Part shown: in pieces, positions 32,368 through 55,446 of the stretch
Layout of the letters: the number at the start of each line of letters is the position of its first letter
Position numbering within the stretch: position 1 is the stretch's first letter
Assembly: GCA_049999805.1 (NCBI GenBank)
Contig: JBNGIO010006279.1
Location: forward strand, 497,815-554,792
Direction of reading: 5' to 3'
Origin: Folioceros fuciformis
Lineage: Eukaryota
Length of the DNA: 56,978 nucleotides
Notes under the pieces: model-generated
The model's input: only the letters and a program-made list of their open reading frames with translations
What the model was told of the DNA's origin: nothing
The model's database searches: none
Program-made: the position numbers and the translations under genes

Positions 32368-33762
32368 TCATTTGGCATCAGCCGAGAGGTGATTGTGTTG
32401 CTGTACAGGGTGCACGTTGCTCACCTTGTCCACAGCACCGCCCTGTTCCAAAACGGCTGCAGCACCCATCCCAGACCCTATACACATGGACACAACCCCG
32501 AACCGGCAGTCCTTCCCTCGCTTCTTCATCTCATGGAGCAGAGTGGCGATGCACCGGGCCCCTGTGGCCCCCAGCGGGTGCCCCATAGCGATGGCTCCAC
32601 CGTTCACGTTGATCTTGGCCGGGTCCAGCTCCAACTTACGCTGGCAGTACGAGTACTGGGACGCAAATGCCTCATTGATCTCGAACAAGTCGATGTCCGG
32701 GATCTCCAGCCCTGCAGCCCTGACCGCCTTGGGGATGGCAACGGCAGGCCCGATCCCCATCACGGCCGGATCCACACCTACCACAGAAAAGCTCCGAAAC
32801 ACACCCAAAATGGGAGCTCCCCTGGCAACAGCCGCCCCTCTGCGCATCAGCAGCACGGCACCGGCCCCGTCGCTCACCTGGCTTGAATTCCCCGCCGTGG
32901 TAGACCCGTTCTTCTTGAAAACCGGCTTCAACTTCCCCAAATCAGCCAGCGAGGTCCCCGGGCGGATGCCGTCGTCCTGCGAGATGGTCACCTGCTTTTC
33001 CTCCCCTGTCTTGGGATCCACCAGCTTCGTTGGCACCGGCACGATCTCCTCCTTGAACCTCCCGGACGCGGTCGCAGCGTGTGCCTTGGCATGCGAATTC
33101 ACCGCCACCTGGTCCTGCTCCTCCCTGCTCACCCCGAACCTCTGTGCCACGTTCTCCGAGGTGACCCCCATGGGGAGCAGACAAGCCTGGGCCTGGGCCA
33201 GCGTCTGCACCCGGGGATTGACAGTCCCCTCCCACGCCATGGAGTTCAACGTCATGGTCTCCAGCCCGGCCCCGATACCCACGTCGTAGAAGCCAGCGGA
33301 GATGGCCGCCACCACATCCGCCACAGCCTGCAGCCCCGACGAGCACTGCCTGTTCACCGTCCGCACAGGCACCGTCTCCGGGAAGCCGGCGAAGAAGGCG
33401 GCAATTCGGCACTCCGCGGCCCGCTGCGAGCCCTGGGCCAGCACGGTGCCCACCACGATGTCCCCAACCTCCTCCGGTCGCACCCCGGTGCCCTCCAGCA
33501 CCGCCTTCAGCACCGGCGTCAGCAGATCCTCCGCCGGCGTGTCCTTGAATCCCCCGCGCTTCGCCTTGCAGATGGGTGTGCGCACCGCGGCCACCACCAC
33601 CACGTCATCGTTGGAGTCTCCCCGCCGCTCGTACGCGGCTGAGTCCCCTGCAAAGCACACACTGCTGCTGAGGATCTCCTCCCCCACGCCCCTGATGGAG
33701 TTGGGCCCGGCTGGAACCAGGTGCGATGTAATCACGCTCTGCCTCCTCATGGCGCCCTCCAT
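32368..33762 (-). CDS. KAT2: Peroxisomal 3-ketoacyl-CoA thiolase (KAT2/PED1-like), intronless
   Basis: PTS2 RQSVITSHL, NRQCSSGLQA active Cys, NEAFA, GHPLGATG, SMCIGSGMG. The start is placed at MEGAMRRQ. Confidence 0.93.
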   Translation of the reverse strand: MEGAMRRQSVITSHLVPAGPNSIRGVGEEILSSSVCFAGDSAAYERRGDSNDDVVVVAAVRTPICKAKRGGFKDTPAEDLLTPVLKAVLEGTGVRPEEVGDIVVGTVLAQGSQRAAECRIAAFFAGFPETVPVRTVNRQCSSGLQAVADVVAAISAGFYDVGIGAGLETMTLNSMAWEGTVNPRVQTLAQAQACLLPMGVTSENVAQRFGVSREEQDQVAVNSHAKAHAATASGRFKEEIVPVPTKLVDPKTGEEKQVTISQDDGIRPGTSLADLGKLKPVFKKNGSTTAGNSSQVSDGAGAVLLMRRGAAVARGAPILGVFRSFSVVGVDPAVMGIGPAVAIPKAVRAAGLEIPDIDLFEINEAFASQYSYCQRKLELDPAKINVNGGAIAMGHPLGATGARCIATLLHEMKKRGKDCRFGVVSMCIGSGMGAAAVLEQGGAVDKVSNVHPVQQHNHLSADAK

Positions 33763-34525
33763 CTTGCCTGCCTTCGATTTTAGCTGGAGCTGCTCTTGCT
33801 TCTGCTCGTCCGATTCCTTCCCTTCTCCTGCTCCTCCTGCTGTGCTGCAACAAGACGACGGAGAAAATAAGGCGATGAGAAGAAGGTGAAGAAGCCTGGA
33901 AGCCAGCAAGCAGGAAACACACCGTCAGCCTTCTTTATTTAAGGTAGATGGCGTGGCATGCTCACCTTCCTCAGTCGACCAAGCACACGCAGCCGGGAGT
34001 TACTGGCTTTATGTAGCCCTCGCAAGCCAAGACCGCCACTTGCCTCAATCAGCTGCTGCGATTTCGGGACTCAGCATATGCTGGGAGGGGCTGGACTGGA
34101 GGAATAAAGCCCTAAGGAGTATTCCAGAACCTTGCGGTGCAAGGCACCCATGATCGCGGGAGATGGGAGCCATGGTGGCGAGCCAAAGAGGATTCGCTTC
34201 ATGGGCCATGGAGAAGGCAGTTGAGCTCCGTGTGCAAGACATTTCTGTACAATCGGAGACACACGCAGGCAAGCTTCACACTCGCGACAACGACCGACGA
34301 CGGCGTGCCATGGACTTAAAGTGATGTTTACTTCTCGGCGTAATTTCAGGCGACCCAAGAATTAGAGAGGCCTGGTCTCACATTACAGATGCGTGCAGGG
34401 GGGTATTCAAGAAAAGTTGTGCGCTACAAAGAATTTGTTCGGAAACTACACAGCTAATGCTAGTCACTCCTTCGAGGAACCAAAATTGAATCATCCGGCT
34501 CCAAGCACCGGAGAGAAGGGAGAGC

Positions 34526-35310
34526 TCAGATCCGGCTGGGGTACAAGAAAACCCTGACTCGGCCACCCTGCATCAGCATTGCAGTGGTTGAGTGAGGAGG
34601 TTGTTGAGACGTGATTCAGCATTGCAGCAAACGGGTGTGACATGCAAAGAAACCACTGGACACGGAAAAGAAAGCGACGGGTACCAGAGACGCTGGCGGC
34701 AGGTTCTTCCTGAACTTGGCTCGAACTACACCGCTGTTCCCATGTGGCCGGACAACCTTCCCCCAGATGCAACGAAACAGTGTGCCATTCTTCTTGGTCT
34801 TGCCTTTGTAGATGTAGGCTGTCCTCTTCCCGAGATACCAGTTCACCTCCTCCTTCGTATTCACTCCTTCGATTTGAAGGAGAGAGGTGCTAGGGTACTG
34901 GTTAGACTTCGACCTGCGAGGAACAGAACACATTGTCATGCGCAAGGAGCAAGCAGGGAGATGAGGGGGCCATAAGACATCACCCTGCAACAGAGCGGAG
35001 AAGCAACGCTGGGGAGCGGGACATACCTCTTGTAGCCTAGGACTATTCCTCGGACATACAGCCTGCAAGGAGGACACACAGAAACAGAATCCACAAGCAT
35101 CAGTACGCAGAAACCTACTTTCTTAACCACCATTGCAGCCACAGCAACAACGACAACAACATCATGAAATCGACTCCACCAACCACCAGGGAAGGTGCGG
35201 CTTTCACAAATCAGCATGCTGGAAAATGACACTCTTCCAACGAACGCGCCAACACTGACATCCGCCAACGCATCAACACACCTCACGGTCTCGCCTTTGG
35301 ATTCAGGCAT
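34526..35310 (-). CDS. RPL35A: 60S ribosomal protein L35a (eL33); exons 35310-35282, 35062-35027, 34913-34685, 34567-34526
   Basis: Spliced product [29 protein letters not shown]...[40 protein letters not shown]. All introns are GT-AG. Confidence 0.93.
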
Positions 35311-36227
35311 TTTAGACGGCGAGAGAGACAGGATTCGGAATTGTGGGTGTCGTCGGCTCGTTGGTTCGCAGTATTGGAAGACCGTCGACCGAAAGCTCGC
35401 CTGCAGACTAATCCCTAATTGTAGCCCTAGAGTACTCTACCCTGCAATAATTAGCTAAGGGAATAACCCACCGCCTTTGAGCATCGGTGCCTTGTAACCG
35501 GATAGTGATCTTTGTCTCTGATCTGCAACCTGATATAGAATCTCTGGCCTCTACCTAGTAACTGGCTATGTCTATGTAGGTTTAGTCGTTACCAATTGGG
35601 ACATCATATGTATTAGTACCTCGTTCACTTAGCTTGATGAAGGTACAATCCAAGAAACAATGTACCCCAAAATCCTCAACCCAAGCTCTGATGGATACTT
35701 GTGGCACTTGGAAGACCCCTGACTTTACTTAGCATAGGCCTATAGTTCTTAAGTCCCAAGAAAAAATTCCTTCGCTTTTGCAAGTATTTACATTGGATAC
35801 TGCTGATTGAAGCACACTAATATCCTTCGTTCCTCGACCCGAAAGCAAGCCAATGGAGACACTTTCGTAAAGATTACATCGTTCCAATGGATGAACGAAT
35901 TTTGGTGTAGGTTACAGAAAAAGCACCTTCCTTCGTACAGATAGTTCGTAGACTCGTTTGTTCAGCTGAAACTTGTAAAATAGATGGTTGGACTGCTTCC
36001 GAAGGCATTCCGTCTAGAGGAAGGATAAAGCATCGCAGTCCCCTGCTGGTTTACAAAAGCAGAAAATCACCCCGGTATTAATCGCTGCCTTCTCACAGCA
36101 CAATCTTAGTGGGTTCTTGTGAAGGTCCGACGGACGCCTGCTCCTCTGCCCGCATGCTGAGCTTTCGGTGGAGCAACAACTTCAACAAAAGTACAAGCGA
36201 AGCCGTTCAAAAGGCTTGCGTTGGGAA

Positions 36228-36478
36228 ATGGAAGCGCTGTGGAGGTCTTTCTTTCTGAACCCTGCGGAATGGTGGGACAACAGATTGATCAAGGTACGCT
36301 TGGGGTTGTGGTTGAAGCTCTAAATGGGTAATCCACTTGCAGTTCCCACACTGGACTTGGGTTTTGCAGACGGATTCTAGAGTTCCAGACTTTCGGCACA
36401 AAGTGAGCAAGGAGGGGTTGTGGGTGGAGCAGGATGGGACTCCGAGCTGGGTGGTGCCTGAGCTTGGTTTCATGGAGG
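36228..36478 (+). CDS. Exons encoding an OSB-type PDF motif (36228-36293 + 36370-~36478), probably 5' exons of the downstream PPR gene
   Basis: MEALWRSFFLNPAEWWDNRLIK | 76-nt GT-AG intron | TDSRVPDFRHKVSKEGLWVEQDGTPSWV. Colinear with the PDF motif at 52180-52323. Confidence 0.75.
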
Positions 36479-36954
36479 GTCAGAAGTGTGTGCATTATGC
36501 TGTGTGTGGGTCGTGGCATATTGTAATGGATACACGTCTCATGGGCAATTAATGTCGCTGTGGGGACAGGGGCCAGCACCCAAGAAACAAGGAGTCCACT
36601 GGAGTGGCAAGGCTGTGTCACTGGTAAGGTGAGCGCGAGATTTCATGCATCGATGTATTTTGTAGCCATGCCTTGTGGGTCGACCCCGTCTAAAGTAGGG
36701 ATTGTGGGATGCTTACAGAAAGTTGCGAGTGGGGTGGGTTACGAAGGCATGCAAGGAGTAGTGCTGGTGGAGACAAGCTTGACGTGAGAGTTGCAAGTTT
36801 GGAGTCCAGGAGACAGGCAAACTTGCTGAACAAGTTTAAGGACCGGACTTCGCAACATGGAGCTGAAGCAGATGTGAGGTACCTTACCCGGTTTTCTATA
36901 ACAAATGGAAGTGACCTTTTGAAGTTTTGAGGTGGTGGACTAATCAATGACTTC

Positions 36955-39576
36955 TTGCGCAATTCAAGGATCACGCATGGACGCAATCAGGAACTGAAAA
37001 AACTGTGTGAGGAAGGGCGGATTGAGGAGGCACTCGAGGTGCTGAAACAGAGGAGCCAGCATTCAGGAATGGTACTGAATGAGACATATGGACATCTGTT
37101 TGAAGCGTGCAGCAAAATTAGGAGCCTTGATATGGCTAGGAGGGCATATGCTCTTGTTACCGTGAAGGGTGGTGAGGTAACGGAAGCATATCTGTGCAGT
37201 GCGGTCATCAAAATGTTTGTCAAGTGCGGGAGTCTTCCGGATGCACTTCTGGTATTCAACCGTTCAACAAAACCTAATGTGTCTGCTTGTAAGACAGTCA
37301 TCTTAGGCCTTGCTGTAAGCGGACAGGGTCGAGAAGCTCTTAGAGTGTATCATAGAATGATAGCCCAACGTCTGAAGCCAGACAAGCACACATTTCTGTG
37401 CGTACTCAAAGTCTGCAGCAAACTAGCAGACCTGCAAGAAGGGAAAAGAATTCATGCGGACGTTGCGAGAGTTGGCTTGGAGTCGGATTTGTTCATAGGC
37501 ACAACTTTAGTAAATATGTACGTGAAATGTGGGAGTATGGTGGATGCCCAGGGTGCATTTGACAGAGTTGTCCCTCGCAATGTGCTTTCGTGGAATGTGC
37601 TGATTGCAGGATATGCCCAGCAAGATGAGAATGAAATAGTGTTGCGGCTGTATAATGAAATGCGAGACCAAGGTGTGAATCCACATGACAGGATCTTTGT
37701 TAGCGTGGTTAAAGGATATGGGAGCATGGCAACCTTGGAAACAGAGACAATGGTGGATGGACAGCCAATCAAGTTGCAAGCTCTAGAAAAGGGTAAGAGA
37801 ATGCATTGTGAGGTTTTAGAGTGGGGCTATGAGTCAGATGCGTTCGTGGCCACTGCTTTGATTGACATGTATGCTAAGTGTGGGAGCATCACTGATGCGC
37901 AGTATGCATTTAATTTATTGTCACAGCGGAATATAGCATCGTGGAATGCGTTACTATCAGGGTACTCCTATCATGGACATGCAGAGACAGTTTTGCAACT
38001 CTACTCCCATATGCAGAAGCAAGGAGTAGAACCCAGTGTTCGTACCTTTGTAACTGTATTGAAAGCCTGCGGCAGCGTGGCTGCTTTGGAAGATGAACAA
38101 ATTGTTTATGGGGAACTGGCGAAGCCAGCTTCTCTGCAAAGGGGAAAGGCCATTCATGCTGAAGTCTATAAGATGGGGTTTGAGACAAATGTTTTCGTGA
38201 GCAACACCTTAGTCCATATGTATGCAAATTGTGGCAGTTTCTCGGACGCCCTGATGTTGTTCGATAGGTTGGGAACACCTGATGTGATTGCTTGGAACGC
38301 AATCGTATCTGGATATGTTCGGCAGAAGCAGAGTGGCAGGGCTCTGGAATTGTATACTCAGATGCAGAAAGCCGGTGTGGAGCCTGACAAGTGGACGTTT
38401 GTAAGCGTGCTGCAGGCATGTGGAAGTGTGGCAGCACTGGAGGAAGTTCCTCAAACAGGTGGACATCCTGTGAAACAAGACTCGCTGCAAAAGGGCAGGG
38501 TAATACATGCTCAGATCCGCAGATACGGGTGTGAATCTGACCCATACGTTAGCTCTGCGCTGATTGACATGTACGGGAAATCTGGAAGTATGACGGACGC
38601 AGAGCATGTGTTCGAGAGCTTAGCTAGACGTGACGTAGTGTCATGGAATGCGCTGATATCTGGATATGCGCAGCAAGAGCAGGGGATGAGAGCAATTCAA
38701 CTGTACTCCAGAATGCAAGAGGAAGGTGCAATACCAGATGAGGCCACATATCTCTCAATGCTCAAGGTTTGTGGTGGTATTGGAGCCCTGTCAATGTGCA
38801 CACAGATCCATGTTGACATGGTGAAAAGCGGGCTCGGTTCGTCTCTAAGTATGGGAAACACGCTTATTCTAGCATACGCGAAATGTGGTAGTTCGGCTGA
38901 TTCAAAGCTTGTTTTCGACTCCTTGCCCAAGCGGAGTCAGATCTCATGGAATGCCATGATTGCAGCGTATACCTTGCAGGGTGACTACGATAAGAGCATG
39001 GAGTGCTTTCAGGAAATGCAGGAAGCAGGCGTGAAGCCGGACGGATACACGTTGAGCTCGCTGCTCGTCTCGTGCAGCCGTGCAGGAATGTTGTACAAGG
39101 GTCTGCACTACTTCCAGTACTTGGTGAGAGACTGCGGCATCAGTGCAACAGACAGGCATTATGCCAGCCTCATTGACCTCGTCGGCCGGGCAGGACTCCT
39201 CCACAAGGCAGAGGACTTGATGCTGCACATGCCTGACCGACCTGGCTTCACAACTTGGATGTCTCTTCTTAGTGCGTGCAGAATCCACCACAACGTTGAG
39301 CTGGGAAGACGTGCATTCGAGCAAGCTTTGAGGCTAGAGCCGAAGCACAGTGCTCCATACATGGTCATGGAGAACATATACGCCCAGGCCGAAATGTGGG
39401 ATTGTGCAGACAAAGTGCTTGAACTGAGGGCACAATCACTTCCTTGGAAGAGACGCGGTCAAAGCTGGATTGAGTGTGACAAGAACGTGCATGTGTTTGC
39501 GGCAGGAGACAAAAGTCACATTCAGACGGATCGCATTCATGCACAGCTTTCAAGATTAGCCTCAAAAATAGGCTAA
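36955..39576 (+). CDS. PLS-class PPR protein, E+ subgroup (no complete DYW), with long L motifs; true start probably in upstream exons
   Basis: Repeated P-L-S triplets (VVSWNALI, TFVSVLQAC, MYAKCG), P2-L2-S2-E1-E2, then RGQSWIE..VHVF..GDKSH and a stop. The ORF starts at TTG. Confidence 0.93.
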   Translation: MRNSRITHGRNQELKKLCEEGRIEEALEVLKQRSQHSGMVLNETYGHLFEACSKIRSLDMARRAYALVTVKGGEVTEAYLCSAVIKMFVKCGSLPDALLVFNRSTKPNVSACKTVILGLAVSGQGREALRVYHRMIAQRLKPDKHTFLCVLKVCSKLADLQEGKRIHADVARVGLESDLFIGTTLVNMYVKCGSMVDAQGAFDRVVPRNVLSWNVLIAGYAQQDENEIVLRLYNEMRDQGVNPHDRIFVSVVKGYGSMATLETETMVDGQPIKLQALEKGKRMHCEVLEWGYESDAFVATALIDMYAKCGSITDAQYAFNLLSQRNIASWNALLSGYSYHGHAETVLQLYSHMQKQGVEPSVRTFVTVLKACGSVAALEDEQIVYGELAKPASLQRGKAIHAEVYKMGFETNVFVSNTLVHMYANCGSFSDALMLFDRLGTPDVIAWNAIVSGYVRQKQSGRALELYTQMQKAGVEPDKWTFVSVLQACGSVAALEEVPQTGGHPVKQDSLQKGRVIHAQIRRYGCESDPYVSSALIDMYGKSGSMTDAEHVFESLARRDVVSWNALISGYAQQEQGMRAIQLYSRMQEEGAIPDEATYLSMLKVCGGIGALSMCTQIHVDMVKSGLGSSLSMGNTLILAYAKCGSSADSKLVFDSLPKRSQISWNAMIAAYTLQGDYDKSMECFQEMQEAGVKPDGYTLSSLLVSCSRAGMLYKGLHYFQYLVRDCGISATDRHYASLIDLVGRAGLLHKAEDLMLHMPDRPGFTTWMSLLSACRIHHNVELGRRAFEQALRLEPKHSAPYMVMENIYAQAEMWDCADKVLELRAQSLPWKRRGQSWIECDKNVHVFAAGDKSHIQTDRIHAQLSRLASKIG

Positions 39577-39959
39577 CTATGCATTGATAAATAGTGCTAG
39601 CAAACTAATTAAACAACGGTCCAAATCAAAGCACTAGATGAGACTGTCAAACTGCCAAAATAGCTGCGTAGTTCCTGCAGAGTAAAGTCGTTCGAGTGTC
39701 ACGCACAAGACCGAGTACACGACGCAAGAGCCTAGCTGCCAAAGCTTGCAGGGTCTCAAGTTTGCACGTGGACTGCAACTGAGGAACATCGGGGACAGTC
39801 TGCAAAGGAGTACGCTTGGTAACTCTAGAGTCCCAAGTCTAAACCCGGAAAGCCTGTCCATGCCTGCCGGACGATAGGAGGCTCCACCTAGCTCGATGAC
39901 TCCTTCCAAGACCAGGTGCAAGGACGCTGGAACATCCACGGATTCTGTCACCTTCCACT

Positions 39960-41363
39960 TTATTGCTTCACATGCCCATTGGAGCTGGGAATCTCACCTG
40001 TGGCGACAGAGTGCAGAGGCTTGGAAGGCATCCCAACGTCTGTGCCAAAGTAGCGATCCCCAAATTCACCCATGCCAGGAACAACGCGATATTCAGCATT
40101 CAAACCTTTGTCGATTTCGGATGTGACTATCTTCAGAAGTGGGAAACGGTCGCACACTGCTTGTATCCCCTCAGGAGCAGATATGAGGTTGAGGAAAATG
40201 ATGTTAGATTCGGGGACACCTTTCTTCAAAAGCAACTCGATGGCCTGAATAGCGCAGTTGCCTGTTGCCAGAACAGGATCAAGTAGCAACACATGCCGGT
40301 TCTGAATGTCTCTGGGAAGATTCTCGTAGATGAGATGCTTTCCATTGTCACCCTCCCTGTGAATCAAGATCTTGCCGATCTTGATGCCCTTGCAACAAGT
40401 CCGCAGAGCATTCTCCATACTCTCTCCACTTCGAATTATGGACACTCCACAAAGCCGCTTGCAAAAATCAACCCCACTGTAGACACATCCAGTAGGTGTC
40501 ACGACCTGCTTTTCCGTGAACGGCAGGTGCCCGAGACCGTGCTCAACAACTAAGCGGATCAACCGGTCAGCATAGAACACGAAGTCGGGATTCGTGGTGT
40601 CGTGGTCCCTAATGATGGTGTGCATGCCTCGGATTTGAAACGTGGACTGGATGACATGAACATTTCCATAAAACTTGCGCAGATCATGAAGCCCCAGCTT
40701 GGTCTGAATATGCTGCACAATCAGATGCACTGCCACGACATTCTCTCCTCCTCGAGGTATGATCACATCGGCATACTTCTTCGTCGGCAGAACAAAATCG
40801 TCGAACGCAGGCTTCACAAACTTAGCATACTGCTCAAGCACACCATTCACATCCCTTCCCCTCTCCAAAGTATCTCTTCTAATTCTTCTTGCAAGCCTCA
40901 CGTCCGCATCCGTGTCCACGAAAATCTTCATGTTCATCATATCCCGAATCCGGGGATCATGGAAAATCAGGATCCCCTCCAAAATCACTACATCCGCTGC
41001 ATTCACCTTCCGGGAGCTGAGAGTGCTCCGCCGGTGCCACTTGAAATCGTAGACAGGAATCTCCACATCCTGCCAGGCCTTCAACTGCCGCAAGCATTCC
41101 AAAAGCTGGTCAGTATCAAAAGCATCGGGATGATCAAAATTGTATTCGCCAGCGTTCTTCGATTCCTCCGGAGTCAGACCCCGGTAGAAGGAATCCTGGT
41201 TCACCAAAATGACCCGGTGGTCATGGAGCTGCTGGATGATCAAGTCGCAGACAGTGGTTTTCCCAGATGCAGTTCCACCAGCAACTCCAATCACAAACGG
41301 CTGCAACTGTTTGCAAAGCACAGTCTGCTTGTTCTCCTCTGCTTCTTCAGCTGCATCAGCCAT
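39960..41363 (-). CDS. UKL: Uridine kinase-like / uracil phosphoribosyltransferase fusion protein, intronless CDS
   Basis: GVAGGTASGKTT P-loop, QDSFY, NFDHPDAFD, LEGIL, then the UPRT domain (RSGESME, LLDPVLATG, PGMGEFGDRYFGT). Confidence 0.93.
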   Translation of the reverse strand: MADAAEEAEENKQTVLCKQLQPFVIGVAGGTASGKTTVCDLIIQQLHDHRVILVNQDSFYRGLTPEESKNAGEYNFDHPDAFDTDQLLECLRQLKAWQDVEIPVYDFKWHRRSTLSSRKVNAADVVILEGILIFHDPRIRDMMNMKIFVDTDADVRLARRIRRDTLERGRDVNGVLEQYAKFVKPAFDDFVLPTKKYADVIIPRGGENVVAVHLIVQHIQTKLGLHDLRKFYGNVHVIQSTFQIRGMHTIIRDHDTTNPDFVFYADRLIRLVVEHGLGHLPFTEKQVVTPTGCVYSGVDFCKRLCGVSIIRSGESMENALRTCCKGIKIGKILIHREGDNGKHLIYENLPRDIQNRHVLLLDPVLATGNCAIQAIELLLKKGVPESNIIFLNLISAPEGIQAVCDRFPLLKIVTSEIDKGLNAEYRVVPGMGEFGDRYFGTDVGMPSKPLHSVATGEIPSSNGHVKQ

Positions 41364-41750
41364 CTTAGGAACAGTTCCAGCCTCCTGGCTCACAGCTGAA
41401 TATCCGAGTGGCGATGGCAGGATGCTAGAGAGAAAATATAAAAACAGAATAAGCTCGTTTAGGGTATGACCACTTCTGTCCAATTAGGGTTGTGAGGCAA
41501 ACCACTGGCTTCCTTACCTCTCTTCTGGACATTCTCAGCACCTTCACATGCCATAAGCTGTGGCTTGATGCACAACGCATCTGCCATTTGTCTGCATTTG
41601 CACATACTCACCTAATAAAAATAAGCTCGGTTCTTGCTTCAATTCCACAGCCTCAGATATAGAATATCTTATACTGTACCACTTCGTCCGAAAAATTAAC
41701 TAAAATTGACTGGCTTCGTTTAGGGCATGACCTCCCCCACTCTCTCCGTT

Positions 41751-48955: not shown

Positions 48956-51567
48956 TTGAAGTCGTTGAGTCGTCTGTGTGAGGATGGAAGGGTGGAAGAG
49001 GCACTACTTCAGATGGATCAGCCAGGTGCCGTGGATGCAGCGGATACAGTGCAGATATATATGAAACTGTTGAAATCGTGCACCACGAGGAAATCACTGG
49101 CTCAGGCCAAGCGGGTGCATGATCATCTGACCAAAAATGGGCTGGAGTCAAACAGGTATTTGGGTGATATGTTGTCTATACTTTGGTGAAGTGTGGGGGC
49201 TTTGTAGACGGGGTACGCATGTTGGACAGATTGTCAAACCGAACTGTTTTAACTTGGACAGCTATCATCTCAGGGTGCACTAAGCTGGGTCAATGGCAGG
49301 AGGCGCTGATAAGGTACCAGCAGATGCAAGAGGAAGGTGTGCAGCCAAACACTTACATACTTGTGAGCTTGCTGAAAGCCTGTGTCAGCTTAGGAGACCT
49401 GGGAGAGGGCAAGCGAATCCATGCTGATGTCGTGATTCGTGGGTGTGAGAATGATGTGTTTGTGGGCACATCTCTGGTTGACATGTATGTCAAGTGTGGA
49501 AGCATAGCTGATGCGGGGTATGTGTTTGACCGCTTGTCGCACCGGGATGTAGTTTCCTGGAATGCCATGCTTGCCGGATATGCTCTGCACAAGCAAGGGC
49601 ATAAGGTTTTGCAGTTAAATGTGCAGATGAAGGAGGAGGGAGTGAGTCCGAACCATCGGACTCTTGTTAGCGTGCTCCAAGCATGCAGTAACCTTGCAGA
49701 AGAAGAAGAAAGTGTCATTCTGGATGAGCAGCCCATCAAAGTGGATTCGCGATGTAAGGGGAGGGCGATCCACGGAGAAGCAGTTCGGAGGGGTTATGAG
49801 TCAGATCTATTTGGTTGTACGGGTCTCATCACTATGTATGCAAAGTGTGGGAGTATGGTGGATGCGCAACATGTGTTCAGATTATGTCAGCATGATCTAG
49901 TTTCATGGACTGCCATGATAGCAGGATACACTCAGCAGCAGCAAGGGGAGATGGCTGTGCAGCTGTTTGAGGAAATGGTAGACAACAATGTTGCTCCAGA
50001 TGATTGGACATTTGCTTGTGCCCTCCAAGGATGTGGTACTGTTGCTGAAAAAGAGGATAGCATCATCCTAGATCTGCAATCCATCAAAGTGGAATGTCTT
50101 TCCAAGGCAAAAGCTTTGCATGCGGAAGCTGCTCAAGGGGGATACGACTGTGTCTTGTTTGTATCTAACTCACTTGTCAGTCTATATGCAAAGTGTGGAA
50201 GCATAGGGGATGCACGATACGTCTTTGACAGATTGCCCCGACGTGACATAGTTTCATGGAACACAGTGCTTGCAGGATATGCTCAGCACCAGCAAGGAGA
50301 GGAAGCTCTCAAGCTTTTAGCGCAGATGTAAGCTGATGGCCTGACTGCTGATGACTGGACGTTTGCCAGTGTGCTTCAAGCATGTAGTTGCCTTGCAGAG
50401 AAGGAAGAGTCTATGTCTGTGAATGCCCAACCCATCAGAGTCGGGAGTCTGCATCGGGGAAAGACAGTACTAGCAGAAGCTCGTTCGAAGGGCTCTGTAT
50501 TGGACGTGTTTGTAGGTAACGCTGATATCAGCCACTATATAAAGTGCGGGAGTCCTACAGATGCACAATGTGTGTTTCAAGAACTCTGCCAGAGGGATGT
50601 CACGTCTTGGAATATATTGCTTGCCGGATTCACTGGCCAGGGTCTAGAAGAACAGGCATTGCAACTTTATGCTGAGATGCAGGCAGACGGTGTGAACGCA
50701 GACGATGTAACAATAGTTGCCATTCTCGGGGCATGTGGCAACATAGGATTTCTCAGCAAAAGCTCTCAAATCCACCATGACATTGTACGAAGTGGGCTTA
50801 AACCCAGTCCTAGTGTGGCAACAGCTCTAGTTCATGCATACGGGAAGTGTGGAAGCATGCTAGATGCTCGCGATGTCTTGGACTCCCTGCCCCGTGATAA
50901 TCTGTGGTCTTGGAGTGCACTGATTGCAGGCTATGCCCGTCAGGGCCACCACGACAAAAGCGTGTCCTGCTTTGAGGAGATGCTTGCGGAAGGCCTGAAC
51001 CCCGATGCGGTCACATTCTCTTCGCTCCTCTCAGCATGCAGCCATGCTGGCATGGTGGAACAAGGCTTGGAGTACTTCGAATGCATGGCCAGAAGTTACG
51101 GTATCTCTGCAACAGTGGAGCACTACGGCATCATGATCGACCTCCTGGGCCGTGCAGGTCTGTTCAAGGAGGCTAAGCATTTCATTACCAGCATGCCAAA
51201 GGAACCTACTCTACCAGTGTGGATGTCCTTGCTTGCTGCCTGCCGAAAGCACGGCAATGTGGTGCTTAGGAGACTGGCCTTCGAACATGCTGTCCGCCTG
51301 CAACCAAGAGAAAGTTCCGCGTTTGTACTCATGTCAAACGTGTATGCTCACGCTGGCATGTCGGAGTCTGCCAAGGAGATCGAGTGGCAGAGACAGCTCG
51401 CAGGCGCATGCAAGGAGCCTGGACGAAGCTGGGTCGAATGTGGACATCAAGTGCATTCTTTTGTCGTTGGCGACCGTGGTCACCCGGAACACGAAACGCT
51501 TCACCAAGTCCTGAAATGCTTGTCTCGAAATGAACATGAATCGAAGACTCCGCCAAGTGCACTCTGA
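48956..51567 (+). pseudogene. PLS-class PPR E+ pseudogene (one frameshift, one nonsense codon)
   Basis: Three ORFs (48956-49189, 49183-50331, 50371-51567) form one PPR array. A 1-nt deletion near 49173 and an in-frame TAA at 50329-50331 in QM*ADG interrupt it. It ends KEPGRSWVE..VHSFVVGDRGHP. Confidence 0.85.
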
Positions 51568-51981
51568 TTTCTTGTCTCACAGGATTGTTCTACGTATCCC
51601 GTTATCACAATTGCCCACGATTCCTCTTCGACCAAACCACACGTCGATGATGAAGACAAAATGGCACAATTCAATACTCAAATCACAACTCCATGGCAAC
51701 GTTTGCACGATCCCCGTTTGTCCATGTCCATTTTCGATCTCTTAGGCGGCTGTGGTTCACCAGCATCGTGCATAATCGGCCTTCAACTGCTTGGTTTCGC
51801 GATCTTCGCTGGCTCATGGCTAAAGTGTCCGAAGCGCGGTTTGTGGTTCGCCGGCATTGTACTACAGTCGGCCTCCAAGTGCTCACTTCCCTGAGATTTG
51901 AGACCTGCAGTTGTCAACAATGTTGTGGCAGAGCCGGTGGAATTCAGGAGAGGAGTGTCTGATATGATTCCATAGGAAGAA

Positions 51982-54900
51982 ATGGCGCTACCATTGCAGT
52001 TTTCCCAGGCCGTTTTGTGGGCGGTCCCCGACTCTGAGAATCTGGTAAATCAACAGTGGATACGTCTCCAGGCATCGCAGCCCACCTCTGTGCCTTGGAG
52101 GTCAACGAATGGCAGGTGTGTTGTGTGCACGGTTTCTGCCGTTCGGAGTGAGGGGAGTGTGCAGGCAGAGAAACAGGACCTATTGTGGCAGCATTTCTTC
52201 CAAGATCCTACTGTGTGGTGGGACAACAGACCGGATAAGAGGAGTTCCAGTCATCCCGACTTCAGGCACAAAACGTCCAAGGAGGCGCTGTGGCTGGATA
52301 ACCGTGACAAACCTGAGTGGGTGGATTCGCAGCTGGCCAGATGGGATGCTGGACAGAAGACCGCACAAGATGGCTGTAAAGCACATGCGGAAGTGGATGC
52401 TATGGTTCAGACATTGTACGTACGGTGTGAGGAGGGGGAATTGAGGGATGCTGTTGAAGTTTTAAATCTCCTAGTACAGAGAGGGTGCTGTGTAAGCCAG
52501 TCTCTCTACTATCGTGTTCTCAAGTTGTGCATGGCACGGAAGGATTTGGGTCTAGGCAGGCGGGTTCATGCTCTTGCTGAGAAAAGTGGGTACCAGTCAA
52601 GCCCATTCTTGGCGAACCACATCATCAGAATGTATGGTTTTCATGGCAAACTGGAGGATGCATTGCATATCTTTAACAAAGTGATTGAACCAGATGCTTA
52701 TATGTGGGCCAGCTTGATTCTGGCGCACGTTCGACATGGAGAGCCCAGGAAGGCTGTAGAGCTGTACCGACGGATGCGAGATTCAAGTATGGAGGCAGAT
52801 AATCATGTGTTCGCAGCAGTCCTCAGGGCCTGCGCAAGTTCAGAGGATCTAGTTGCTGGCAAGGAGGTGCATGCTGATATTGTTGCCAGTGCTGTCCAGG
52901 CTGATGTGGTTGTTGGCAACAGCTTGGTGAACATGTATGCGAAATGTGGGAGAGTGGATGACGCTCGCAGTGTGTTTGACAGGTTGGGTGCGAGGGATGT
53001 GGTGACCTGGAATACTATGATCACTGGATATACGCAGGAGGGGCTTGGTAGAGAAGCCCTGGCCCTCTATGCTAGCATGCAGGAAGAGGCACTTGCTTTA
53101 GCCAATCCCGCTACTTTCATGTGCCTCCTGCAAGCTTGCAGTACTGTGGGAGCACTGCATCTGGGACAGGAGATTCACGAGCGAATACGGGACAAGGGAA
53201 TGGGAACTGATCTGCTGGTGGGAAACTCCTTGGTCGACATGTATGCAAAGTGTGGGAGCTTGGAAACTGCAGTCAGGGTATTTGATGCAATGCCCACGAG
53301 AGATGTGGTGACATGGAACACCATGATAGCTGGATATACGCAGCAGGGGCATGGTCATGATGCACTCGCCATGTATGCAAGGATGCAGGAGGAGGGCGTC
53401 ATTGCCAGTGAAGTGACGTTCGTCTGCCTTCTTCAAGCATGTGCGAATATCGGCATCGAAGCTGTTTTCGAGGGAAAGGAGCTCCATGAGCAGATTTGTG
53501 GAAGGGGTCTGGAAACTGGTACGTTGATCGGGAGCTGCCTGGTGGAGATGTATGCCAAATGTGGGAGCGTGGAGAAAGCTCGAAGTGTGTTTGACAGGAT
53601 GTCCACAAAAAATGTGGTCACATGGACTTCCATGATCGCAGGATATGCTCAGCACGGGCTTGGACAGGACGCCCTTGCCCTATACAGTAGCATGCAACAA
53701 GAGGGCATGACTCCACCTGATCGTGTCACATTTCTTTATCTCCTGAAAGCATGCGGTAGTTTAAAATCTCTGCACCTGGGCCAGGGCCTTCACACACAGG
53801 TCAAAGAACGAGGGCTGGAAGGAGATTTGCTAGTTGGTAACTGCCTTATCGAAATGTATTTGAAATGTGATAGCTTGGAGGATGCTCGGAGAGTGTTCAA
53901 CGGTCTACGCACAAGAGATATTGTGACATGGAATACGATCATCGCAGGATATGCTCACCGAGGGCTCGGGCAAGAAGCTCTTGATCTGTATGACACTATG
54001 CAAGCAGATGGGTTGACTCCGGCCAATCAAACAACTTTTGTGTCCCTCCTTCAAGCTTGCGCCACAGTGGGAAGGCTGCATCAGGGGAAGCAGCTTCACG
54101 CACAGATTCGTGAAAGTGGTCTGGAAGCTGATGTATCTGTTGGCAGCAGCCTGGTCGACATGTATGCAAAATGCGGGAGCTTGAAGGATGCTCTCACCAC
54201 CTTTGACAACCTGATGACGAAAGACGTGGTTACATGGACTGCCATGATCGCAGGATACTCCCAGCAGGCAATGGGTCAGGAAGCACTGGATCTTTATGTA
54301 GCTATGCAGCTAGAGGGCATGAGTCCAGCTAACCATGTAACATTTGTGTGCCTCCTTCAAGCGTGTGCAACTTTGGGCGCCCTGCATCAAGGAAAGGGGC
54401 TTCATGTGCAAATAGAGGAAATGGGTTTCCTTGCAGACGTGCAAGTCGGCAACTCTCTGGTGAACATGTACGCAAAATGTGGAAGTATGGGTGACGCCAG
54501 AACTGTATTCAACAGATTGCCAGCAAAAGACGTAGTAACATACAGTGCCCTGCTCAACGGCTATGCCGAGCATGGTGACGGGCAAATGGCTATGGAATGT
54601 TTCGAAGAGATGCTTCAGCAAGGTGTACAGCCAGATGCAACCAGCTTCGTCTGCCTGCTTGTGGCATGCAGCCATGCAGGCCTGGTCTCTGAAGGCAGGC
54701 AATACTTCAGAACGATGGTGGACACGTACGCTATAGTTCCAACTGATCAGCACCATAGCTGCATGGTTGACCTAATCGCAAGATCAGGCCATCTCTCAGA
54801 AGCTGAAGATATGATCCTATCTACGAGGTTCGAGAACGACTTTGTGGCCTGGAAGTCTTTGCTCAGTGCGTGCAAAAACCATGGAGATGTAGACCGTGCA

Positions 54901-55446
54901 AGGCGGTGCTTCAACCGTCTCGTCGAACTGGAACCTGAGCACGCCAGTTCCTACGTACTCCTGGCCAACATGTATGCGAGCGCCGGCAGGAGGACGGACG
55001 CAGATCGGATAGAGGACATGAGAAAGACGGCAGGTGCTAGGAAGAAACCTGCCAGGGCCGGCATCGAGGTGAACAACAAGGTGCACGAGTTCACAGTGGG
55101 AGAAGGTAGGGTTGAGATCTCATCAAAGGTGCGGAGTGTGAACAAGAGGTTAAAGGAGGAAGGTGGCCATGTGCCACAGACGGACTTGGTGCTCAGGACC
55201 GTGTCGGAACAGGAGAAGGAAGACGCCTTGTGTGGACATGCTGAGAAACTCGCGTTGGCCTATGGCTTACTGAACACTCCAGACGGCGCCACTTTGCTGG
55301 TGACAAAAAACCTCCGGATGTGCAACGACTGCCATAGCAGTACCAAGATCATGTCAAATCTCGAGAACCGGGAGATAATTGTCAGAGATGCTCATCGTGT
55401 CCACCGCTTTGTGAATGGATCTTGCAGCTGCGGGGATCGACATTGA
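51982..55446 (+). CDS. PLS-PPR protein with DYW:KP (DRH-type) deaminase-like domain and N-terminal PDF motif; candidate U-to-C organellar RNA-editing factor
   Basis: 1154-aa intronless ORF: transit-like N-terminus, WWDNR..PDFRHK, ~23 PLS motifs, E1-E2, KKPARAGIEV, HAEKLA, CNDCH, SCSCGDRH*. Confidence 0.93.
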   Translation: MALPLQFSQAVLWAVPDSENLVNQQWIRLQASQPTSVPWRSTNGRCVVCTVSAVRSEGSVQAEKQDLLWQHFFQDPTVWWDNRPDKRSSSHPDFRHKTSKEALWLDNRDKPEWVDSQLARWDAGQKTAQDGCKAHAEVDAMVQTLYVRCEEGELRDAVEVLNLLVQRGCCVSQSLYYRVLKLCMARKDLGLGRRVHALAEKSGYQSSPFLANHIIRMYGFHGKLEDALHIFNKVIEPDAYMWASLILAHVRHGEPRKAVELYRRMRDSSMEADNHVFAAVLRACASSEDLVAGKEVHADIVASAVQADVVVGNSLVNMYAKCGRVDDARSVFDRLGARDVVTWNTMITGYTQEGLGREALALYASMQEEALALANPATFMCLLQACSTVGALHLGQEIHERIRDKGMGTDLLVGNSLVDMYAKCGSLETAVRVFDAMPTRDVVTWNTMIAGYTQQGHGHDALAMYARMQEEGVIASEVTFVCLLQACANIGIEAVFEGKELHEQICGRGLETGTLIGSCLVEMYAKCGSVEKARSVFDRMSTKNVVTWTSMIAGYAQHGLGQDALALYSSMQQEGMTPPDRVTFLYLLKACGSLKSLHLGQGLHTQVKERGLEGDLLVGNCLIEMYLKCDSLEDARRVFNGLRTRDIVTWNTIIAGYAHRGLGQEALDLYDTMQADGLTPANQTTFVSLLQACATVGRLHQGKQLHAQIRESGLEADVSVGSSLVDMYAKCGSLKDALTTFDNLMTKDVVTWTAMIAGYSQQAMGQEALDLYVAMQLEGMSPANHVTFVCLLQACATLGALHQGKGLHVQIEEMGFLADVQVGNSLVNMYAKCGSMGDARTVFNRLPAKDVVTYSALLNGYAEHGDGQMAMECFEEMLQQGVQPDATSFVCLLVACSHAGLVSEGRQYFRTMVDTYAIVPTDQHHSCMVDLIARSGHLSEAEDMILSTRFENDFVAWKSLLSACKNHGDVDRARRCFNRLVELEPEHASSYVLLANMYASAGRRTDADRIEDMRKTAGARKKPARAGIEVNNKVHEFTVGEGRVEISSKVRSVNKRLKEEGGHVPQTDLVLRTVSEQEKEDALCGHAEKLALAYGLLNTPDGATLLVTKNLRMCNDCHSSTKIMSNLENREIIVRDAHRVHRFVNGSCSCGDRH

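Follow-up and report, generated by a model that had tools for sequence, protein, structure and literature searches.

PPR editing factors are described as proteins in which an RNA-reading repeat tract is joined to E and DYW ends, and the PLS-class E/E+ PPR proteins act as organellar RNA-editing specificity factors. OSB proteins, for their part, are described as an OB fold together with PDF motifs. The PDF motif is about 50 residues long and bears a Pro-Asp-Phe signature (accessible portions of PMC6963530, PMC4166229 and PMC13393729), and the motif of OSB1 is reported, in the accessible portions of two reviews (PMC6963530, PMC4166229), to be sufficient for the binding of single-stranded DNA.

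We consider here a locus of the hornwort Folioceros fuciformis at which a PDF motif and a PPR tract lie side by side. The stretch of DNA analysed (hereafter the window; 56,978 nucleotides, contig JBNGIO010006279.1 of assembly GCA_049999805.1, positions 497,815 to 554,792 of the forward strand) represents nuclear DNA of a plant and is rich in PPR genes, and all positions below are those of the window. Like the PLS-class E/E+ PPR proteins, the PPR ORF of this locus has its PPR repeats followed by an E motif, with a weak and incomplete E+ match behind it, and is devoid of a deaminase domain; it would differ from them, if joined as we propose, by an extra N-terminal PDF module. The motif itself shares with those of OSB1 to OSB4 the invariant W, WWD.R, K, PDF.HK, LW and P.W as well as the 8-residue spacing class. 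However, in OSB1 to OSB4 the PDF motif lies C-terminal of the OB fold, whereas here it is N-terminal, present as a single copy, placed before a PPR array and unaccompanied by an OB or SSB domain.

The PDF part of the locus consists of the following elements.

36228..36293, plus strand: PDF exon a, comprising the ATG and the first motif half and ending on the invariant K of ..WWDNRLIK
36294..36369, plus strand: intron 1, 76 nt, GT..AG, phase 0, acceptor TTTTGCAG
36370..36478, plus strand: PDF exon b, comprising the second motif half, PDFRHK .. LW .. PSWV

Exon a opens with the ATG at 36228 and holds 22 codons; exon b starts TDSRVPDFRHK.. and its frame stays open until the stop at 36550-36552. 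A first-pass annotation of this DNA had recognised a PDF motif interrupted by a GT-AG intron (36294-36369), and this is borne out, the GT occupying 36294-95 and the AG 36368-69, with excision restoring an intact motif in phase 0. In the neighbouring gene, the introns that RNA-like contigs skip have TGCAG acceptors, to which TTTTGCAG is similar. In exon b the codon-usage score is +8.9 in frame, the two remaining frames scoring -9.4 and -11.2. Upstream of exon a, the interval 36123-36227 has low-grade similarity to OSB linkers only and shows no evidence of coding.

The colinearity with the PDF motif of a second protein of the window, the one ending in DRH, also holds, both halves matching its N-terminus in order in BLASTP (exon a with residues 68-88 of the DRH-ending ORF, E 9e-8; exon b with residues 94-131, E 4e-10). 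When the DRH motif was run by tblastn against the whole window, it found itself and the two exon pieces (E 2e-5 and 5.6e-9), the next match being at E 0.04. Likewise, against a profile built from the 331 PDF domains of 150 database proteins (the best 150 of 702 motif matches), exons a and b score 79.2 bits when spliced, in a single ungapped alignment over profile positions 15-73, compared with 27.6 bits for exon a alone (profile positions 13-35) and 38.1 bits for exon b alone; the DRH copy scores 88.6 bits. The distance between W.D.R and PDF is 8 residues in 201 of the 329 motifs of these best 150 proteins, 12 residues in 121 and another value in 7, and the splicing of intron 1 yields precisely the commonest of these spacings. 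In an alignment of 34 sequences, 8 columns are invariant and 7 nearly so, and the target, as read from its translation, keeps every one of them. On the sequence evidence, the presence of two small exons encoding an intact OSB-type PDF motif is thus confirmed. A 17-nt direct repeat, 88% identical, links 36302-36318 in intron 1 with 36414-36430 in exon b and is probably due to chance.

The DRH protein is encoded by a gene for which the first-pass annotation had claimed an intronless copy of the motif, and this gene is indeed found 15 kb away.

51982..55446, plus strand: comparison gene, PDF-PPR-DYW:KP, ending in DRH, intronless, one ORF

Its PDF motif lies at approximately 52153-52365 and is preceded by a stretch of 57 residues, while its C-terminal part matches DYW_deaminase at 124 bits and the E motif at 55.1 bits and has HAE in the deaminase site; DRH is given in the available part of PMC9478123 as a hornwort variant of DYW:KP proteins. 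This gene therefore holds the PDF-PPR architecture as one polypeptide within a single ORF. It agrees with the target in placing the motif N-terminal of a PPR array that opens with ..C.EG.L..A.., but differs from it in being a single intronless ORF, in its DYW:KP end and in the 57 residues that precede the motif, and in their second motif halves the two genes have only 18 of 38 residues identical.

To place the motif more widely, 1.84 billion library representatives were scanned with the DRH motif by HMMER, which returned 702 proteins at E<=1e-3, of which 203 reached E<=1e-10. Pfam, with a family threshold of 1e-5, divides the best 150 of the 702 matches as follows.

30 proteins: SSB domain with C-terminal motif or motifs, the OSB architecture
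12 proteins: PPR proteins with an N-terminal motif
1 protein: kinesin
2 proteins: odd weak matches
105 proteins: no Pfam family at 1e-5

Several members of the SSB-type clusters bear the names OSB1 or OSB3 in their sources, and for the PDF motif itself Pfam returns no family. Within the same best 150 proteins the classes with 8 and with 12 residues between W.D.R and PDF are sharply separate. Insertions at positions 19-30 are reported for Group III OSBs in the accessible part of PMC13393729, and the 12-residue class probably corresponds to them; the site of this insertion coincides with the position of intron 1.

The 12 PPR-type proteins among the best 150 matches come from Diphasiastrum, Selaginella (RefSeq), Ceratopteris, Adiantum, Sphagnum, Pteridium and Logan contigs, the Pteridium member being a transcript ORF, and one Logan contig protein (P0006) has three PDF motifs before its PPR array. 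In their sources, the PDF-PPR proteins of the library are unnamed or called 'hypothetical'. A scan of metagenome contigs with an alignment of four PDF-PPR N-termini gave 415 relatives, from which 80 loci were retained. A PPR tract follows just downstream on the same strand in 76 of these 80 plant-like loci, an OB fold was found in none of the 80, and the second PDF half runs directly into the PPR ORF. At one of them (L044) everything from the PDF motif through the PPR tract is one continuous ORF, and an intron between the two, considered for this locus, was rejected on that account.

In motif trees of 62 columns the label 'PPR-linked' requires 3-4 changes, as against about 16 for shuffled labels, and the AU test does not reject the grouping of all 18 PPR-linked motifs in one clade (p 0.318), a result compatible with one origin and falling short of proving it. 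The DRH motif groups with P0006, P0076, P0090, P0093, P0142 and P0151 (SH-aLRT 93), and the target motif sits outside this group on a long branch of unsettled placement. All these PDF-PPR genes (Diphasiastrum O6H91_01G119900, Selaginella XP_024517303, those of Adiantum, Ceratopteris and Sphagnum, and the metagenome loci L001-L080) share with the target the order of PDF motif and then PPR tract; they differ from it in that their second PDF exon continues straight into the PPR ORF, whereas at the target some 450 nt with four stops intervene.

By architecture and motif match, PDF-PPR is then a widespread family of seed-free land plants and not the product of a local double capture. Of the earlier suggestion that a PDF-PPR fusion had occurred twice in 20 kb, the part concerning a second PDF on the DRH gene stands, and that of two local fusion events does not. 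The related idea of exon capture from an OSB-like gene at the target locus is not upheld: the same layout recurs in lycophytes, ferns, mosses and most of the metagenome loci, and since both the fusion and the coexistence of intron-bearing and intronless copies are family-wide, no such capture is needed.

Intron 1 is also a family trait. Among the 80 metagenome loci the motif is split in 24 (20 distinct), whole in 42 (40 distinct) and partial in 14. The split loci break at profile positions 35/37, and in all 24 the GT comes right after the K codon and the AG five codons before PDF, so that place and phase agree with those of the target; 23 of them continue into a PPR tract, the exception being a contig of 1087 nt. 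As far as sequence comparison can date it, the intron after the invariant K is old. Two Diphasiastrum isoforms, P0158 and P0157, differ only by an insertion of seven residues immediately behind the invariant K, which looks like the use of alternative acceptors at the same intron, and the isoform pairs among the OSBs carry no information on its position. The earlier observation of one copy with the intron and one without it thus extends beyond the window, since 24 split and 42 whole loci imply that intron-bearing and intronless copies coexist across the family. Retroposition, which had been offered as the origin of the intronless copy, is a fair reading and fits the literature on PPR retroposition: the accessible part of PMC13386178 attributes PPR expansions to retroposition-associated duplication, and loss of the intron in the course of such an expansion can fairly be taken as the simplest account of intronless copies such as the DRH gene.

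Downstream of the PDF exons lies the PPR body.

36969..39576, plus strand: PLS-type PPR body, its ORF open from 36931, stop at 39574-39576

The ORF 36931-39576 matches PPR_2 at 294.5 bits and E_motif at 37.1 bits (cut-off 27.3), and no match to the DYW deaminase (PF14432) was found in it. Its previous designation as an E+ PPR is upheld for the E motif and less so for E+, since Eplus_motif, covering positions 1-25 of 28, reaches 12.4 bits and stays under the cut-off of 24. The frame runs for 881 codons free of stops, and an RNA-like contig (record 1) covers 37926-41376 with zero differing letters. As had been noticed before, this ORF has no start of its own ahead of the first repeat.

How, then, might the PDF exons be connected to this ORF? 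Exon b and the PPR ORF are on the same strand and in the same frame, but the spacer of about 450 nt between them contains four in-frame stops, at 36550, 36625, 36691 and 36928. The most likely reading is that the stop-bearing spacer would be removed as two further introns.

36479..36718, plus strand: proposed intron 2, 240 nt, G|GTCAGA .. GCTTACAG|
36719..36878, plus strand: proposed linker exon, 53 codons, in frame with exon b and the PPR ORF
36879..36968, plus strand: proposed intron 3, 90 nt, GAG|GTACCT .. AATTCAAG|

Proposed intron 2 contains three of the four stops (36550, 36625 and 36691) and has a codon-usage score of -2.2 in its best frame. The linker frame is open over 36694-36927 (78 codons), with ATG 36709 as an alternative, stand-alone start, and the frame identity of this linker ORF (36694-36930 as delimited here) with the PPR ORF, pointed out in the first-pass annotation, is correct. 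Over 36721-36876 it scores +6.7 in frame versus -3.8 and -22.8 in the other frames, where known coding pieces of 159 nt have a mean of 10.9 in frame (sd 11) and of -16.8 off frame (sd 9.7). Proposed intron 3 takes out the TGA at 36928-36930 and has a negative codon score in all three frames, and its acceptor falls short of the local TGCAG type in strength. With introns 2 and 3 excised, all four stops disappear and one frame of 981 codons extends from 36228 to 39576. Other GT-AG arrangements also give open paths in silico, 27 with a single intron and 59 with two, the proposed path being one of the 59.

We infer from this arrangement that the PDF exons are rather probably the N-terminal nucleic-acid-binding module of the downstream PPR gene, the whole forming one fused gene. 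The N-terminus of the PPR part (..LCEEG..) is colinear with the region just after the PDF motif in the DRH gene, P0006 and P0076. A start at ATG 36228 would deprive the protein of an N-terminal presequence, an unusual condition for a protein of organelles; this does not exclude that putative start, because the gene models of Selaginella (RefSeq) and Adiantum have their Met directly at the PDF motif.

The contig and read material is largely neutral on transcript structure. Contigs were aligned to 20 kb at 90% likeness, a procedure that also admits paralogous PPR contigs; the mean word depths of 2.3 and 3.5 over 35600-36933 do not discriminate between structures, nor does a contig over 36436 (G read as T), which ends 42 letters away. 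A look-up of sequencing runs returned no RNA run among its matches, one run of unrecorded type (X1) having 0.77 of the sampled words. Three word-index protein searches yielded no model or transcript ORF of the target gene and only three distant PPR proteins. Among word-index matches, that best matching the N-terminus of the target PPR is P0001 of Diphasiastrum, which opens with a weak look-alike of the first PDF half (profile score 1.0, not significant) followed by K-V-R, the residues obtained by reading through the donor of target intron 1; the annotation of P0001 may retain the same intron.

A different way of dealing with the spacer is to assume two genes, an 82-residue PDF-only mini-gene and an independent PPR gene starting at ATG 36709.

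36228-36293 and 36370-36549, plus strand: mini-gene on the two-gene assumption, two exons, stop 36550-36552
36709, plus strand: start ATG of the PPR gene on the same assumption, with one 90-nt intron

We consider this unlikely. It takes the exon b frame as closing naturally 22 codons past the motif and the ATG at 36709 as opening a frame of 73 codons with a coding-like score, and short PDF-only entries occur in the library (for example P0097 with 102 aa and P0065 with 162 aa, which may be fragments). But only about 160 nt separate the stop at 36550-36552 from ATG 36709, leaving little room for a terminator and a promoter, the mini-protein would be without a presequence, the reading frame common to both parts would be a coincidence (one in three), and in the related loci, 76 times out of 80, motif and PPR tract form one gene.

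One fused gene, the reading that we prefer, could also have been damaged. The related loci examined can pass from the PDF motif to the PPR tract without an intron, and for this reason the four-stop spacer is atypical and could mark a disrupted gene. An ancestral exon, continuous from the second PDF half into the PPR tract, would then have gained stops or an insertion in the linker; the PDF exons would be untranslated relics or a uORF, and the PPR part either a pseudogene or translated from 36709. Besides the intronless linker of the relatives, the confinement of the four in-frame stops to the 450-nt linker and the long branch of the target motif speak for such a decay. We nevertheless hold it to be quite improbable, as decay would not spare the flanks, in which all 15 conserved motif columns and the PPR frame of 881 codons are intact, and as the frame is preserved across the spacer; moreover, the window has no other copy of the spacer and the spacer lacks inverted repeats, so that nothing points to a transposon.

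It is very improbable that exons a and b form the 3' terminus of an ordinary OSB gene, with an OB fold and a C-terminal PDF motif, which merely adjoins the PPR gene. In OSB proteins the C-terminal PDF motif is followed by a short tail, comparable to the 22 codons seen here. But when the 30 SSB-type proteins were used as tblastn queries, their 87 matches in 36200-36500 involved PDF parts only, no OB fold was matched (the only matches in 33000-36122 were at E 0.74 and E 8.7), and Pfam returned no family in the frame upstream of exon a. In addition, a ribosomal protein L35Ae gene on the opposite strand (34616-35436) leaves less than 800 nt for the OSB part. On these alignments the target motif is a member of the PDF family, while the gene itself, since 30 OSB-type queries find no OB fold nearby, is not an OSB. 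A chance resemblance to the motif has a negligible probability, being refuted by the BLASTP, tblastn and profile scores, the spacing class and the intron position common to 24 loci.

The fold of the motif was approached through the DRH copy. AlphaFold models it with a pLDDT of 94.2 as a helix, a small three-stranded element, in which the residues W, D, R, K and PDF are located, and a second helix; modelled together with the first PPR repeats (pLDDT 91.6, lower in the linker), the second helix continues into the PPR stack. With this motif model Foldseek found nothing in the PDB at E<=0.001 (best E 1.8), and the highest Z that VIA-align reached over 48,161 chains was 4.4. No known fold can thus be named for the modelled motif, which is not the same as showing a new one.

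From these elements a mechanism can be outlined. In the gene structure proposed as usual for the family, exon 1 would supply the start and the first PDF half, a phase-0 intron would follow the invariant lysine, and exon 2 would lead from the second PDF half straight into the PPR array; at the target, removal of the spacer as introns 36479-36718 and 36879-36968 would leave the linker exon of 53 codons. By analogy with OSB1, the PDF module could add unspecific binding of single-stranded nucleic acid to a sequence-specific PPR protein of RNA-editing type, or it could, alternatively, tether the PPR protein to the nucleoid; on the same analogy it would sit at the 5' end of the RNA footprint. More tentatively, it is possible that the PDF-PPR proteins make up a large class of organellar PPR proteins of RNA-editing type, that an OSB module became fused to the N-terminus of PLS PPR proteins before the split of hornworts and vascular plants, that the intron was kept, and that the module ties editors, including the U-to-C editors of DYW:KP type, to single-stranded nucleic acid or the nucleoid, so coupling editing to transcription or genome maintenance, with the target having gained two linker introns.

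U-to-C editors are now in use for synthetic base editors, and the module, if functional, would be an accessory nucleic-acid-binding part for natural editing factors, the U-to-C editors included. It would likewise tie RNA editing factors to a family known for mitochondrial genome stability, and the conserved intron would provide a marker by which retroposition could be followed as the PPR family expanded. The locus also shows annotators of genomes how readily a short exon at the 5' end of a PPR gene is overlooked. In the literature library searched, five papers use the term 'PDF motif' and one more the term 'PDF domain', and in none of the six was a link to PPR found. The accessible part of a 2026 study of the OSB family, which uses the term 'PDF domain', mentions neither PPR nor intron nor hornwort, and that of PMC13386178, a survey from 2026 of the domains fused to editing factors, mentions neither OSB nor SSB nor single-stranded. 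The PDF-PPR layout is thus present in the databases in unlabelled form and no description of it was found; because Pfam returns no family for the motif, Pfam-based surveys miss this fusion of an OSB motif with PLS PPR proteins. Two hornwort members of the family come from the window, the DRH gene and, probably, the target with its conserved intron.

Some further features of the motif and of the window may be recorded. Five proteins (P0004, P0005, P0008, P0010 and P0015) have 9-13 tandem PDF motifs, with no OB-fold or PPR family of Pfam at 1e-5; the largest number, 13, is found in P0004 of Kingdonia, and P0010 has only DUF4927 and NifQ, both as low-grade Pfam matches. In the Coptis kinesin (P0063) the PDF motifs are N-terminal of the motor domain. 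The motif seems to be a mobile module whose range goes beyond OSB and PPR proteins.

Within the window, 49168-51567 (plus strand) is a PPR gene with an E motif that one in-frame stop (50329-50331) divides into two ORFs. A further RNA-like contig (record 3) covers 49271-51577 with zero differing letters, so that the stop is present in the contig too, and the locus could be either a pseudogene or a gene expressed in spite of its interruption. At 1425-4930 (minus strand) there is a remnant of a non-LTR retroelement having endonuclease and reverse-transcriptase domains in broken frames, which bears on retroposition-driven PPR expansion only in a general way. Finally, the record 1 contig begins within the plus-strand PPR ORF and runs through the entire minus-strand uridine kinase/UPRT gene (39960-41483), which suggests that these convergent genes have abutting or overlapping 3' ends.
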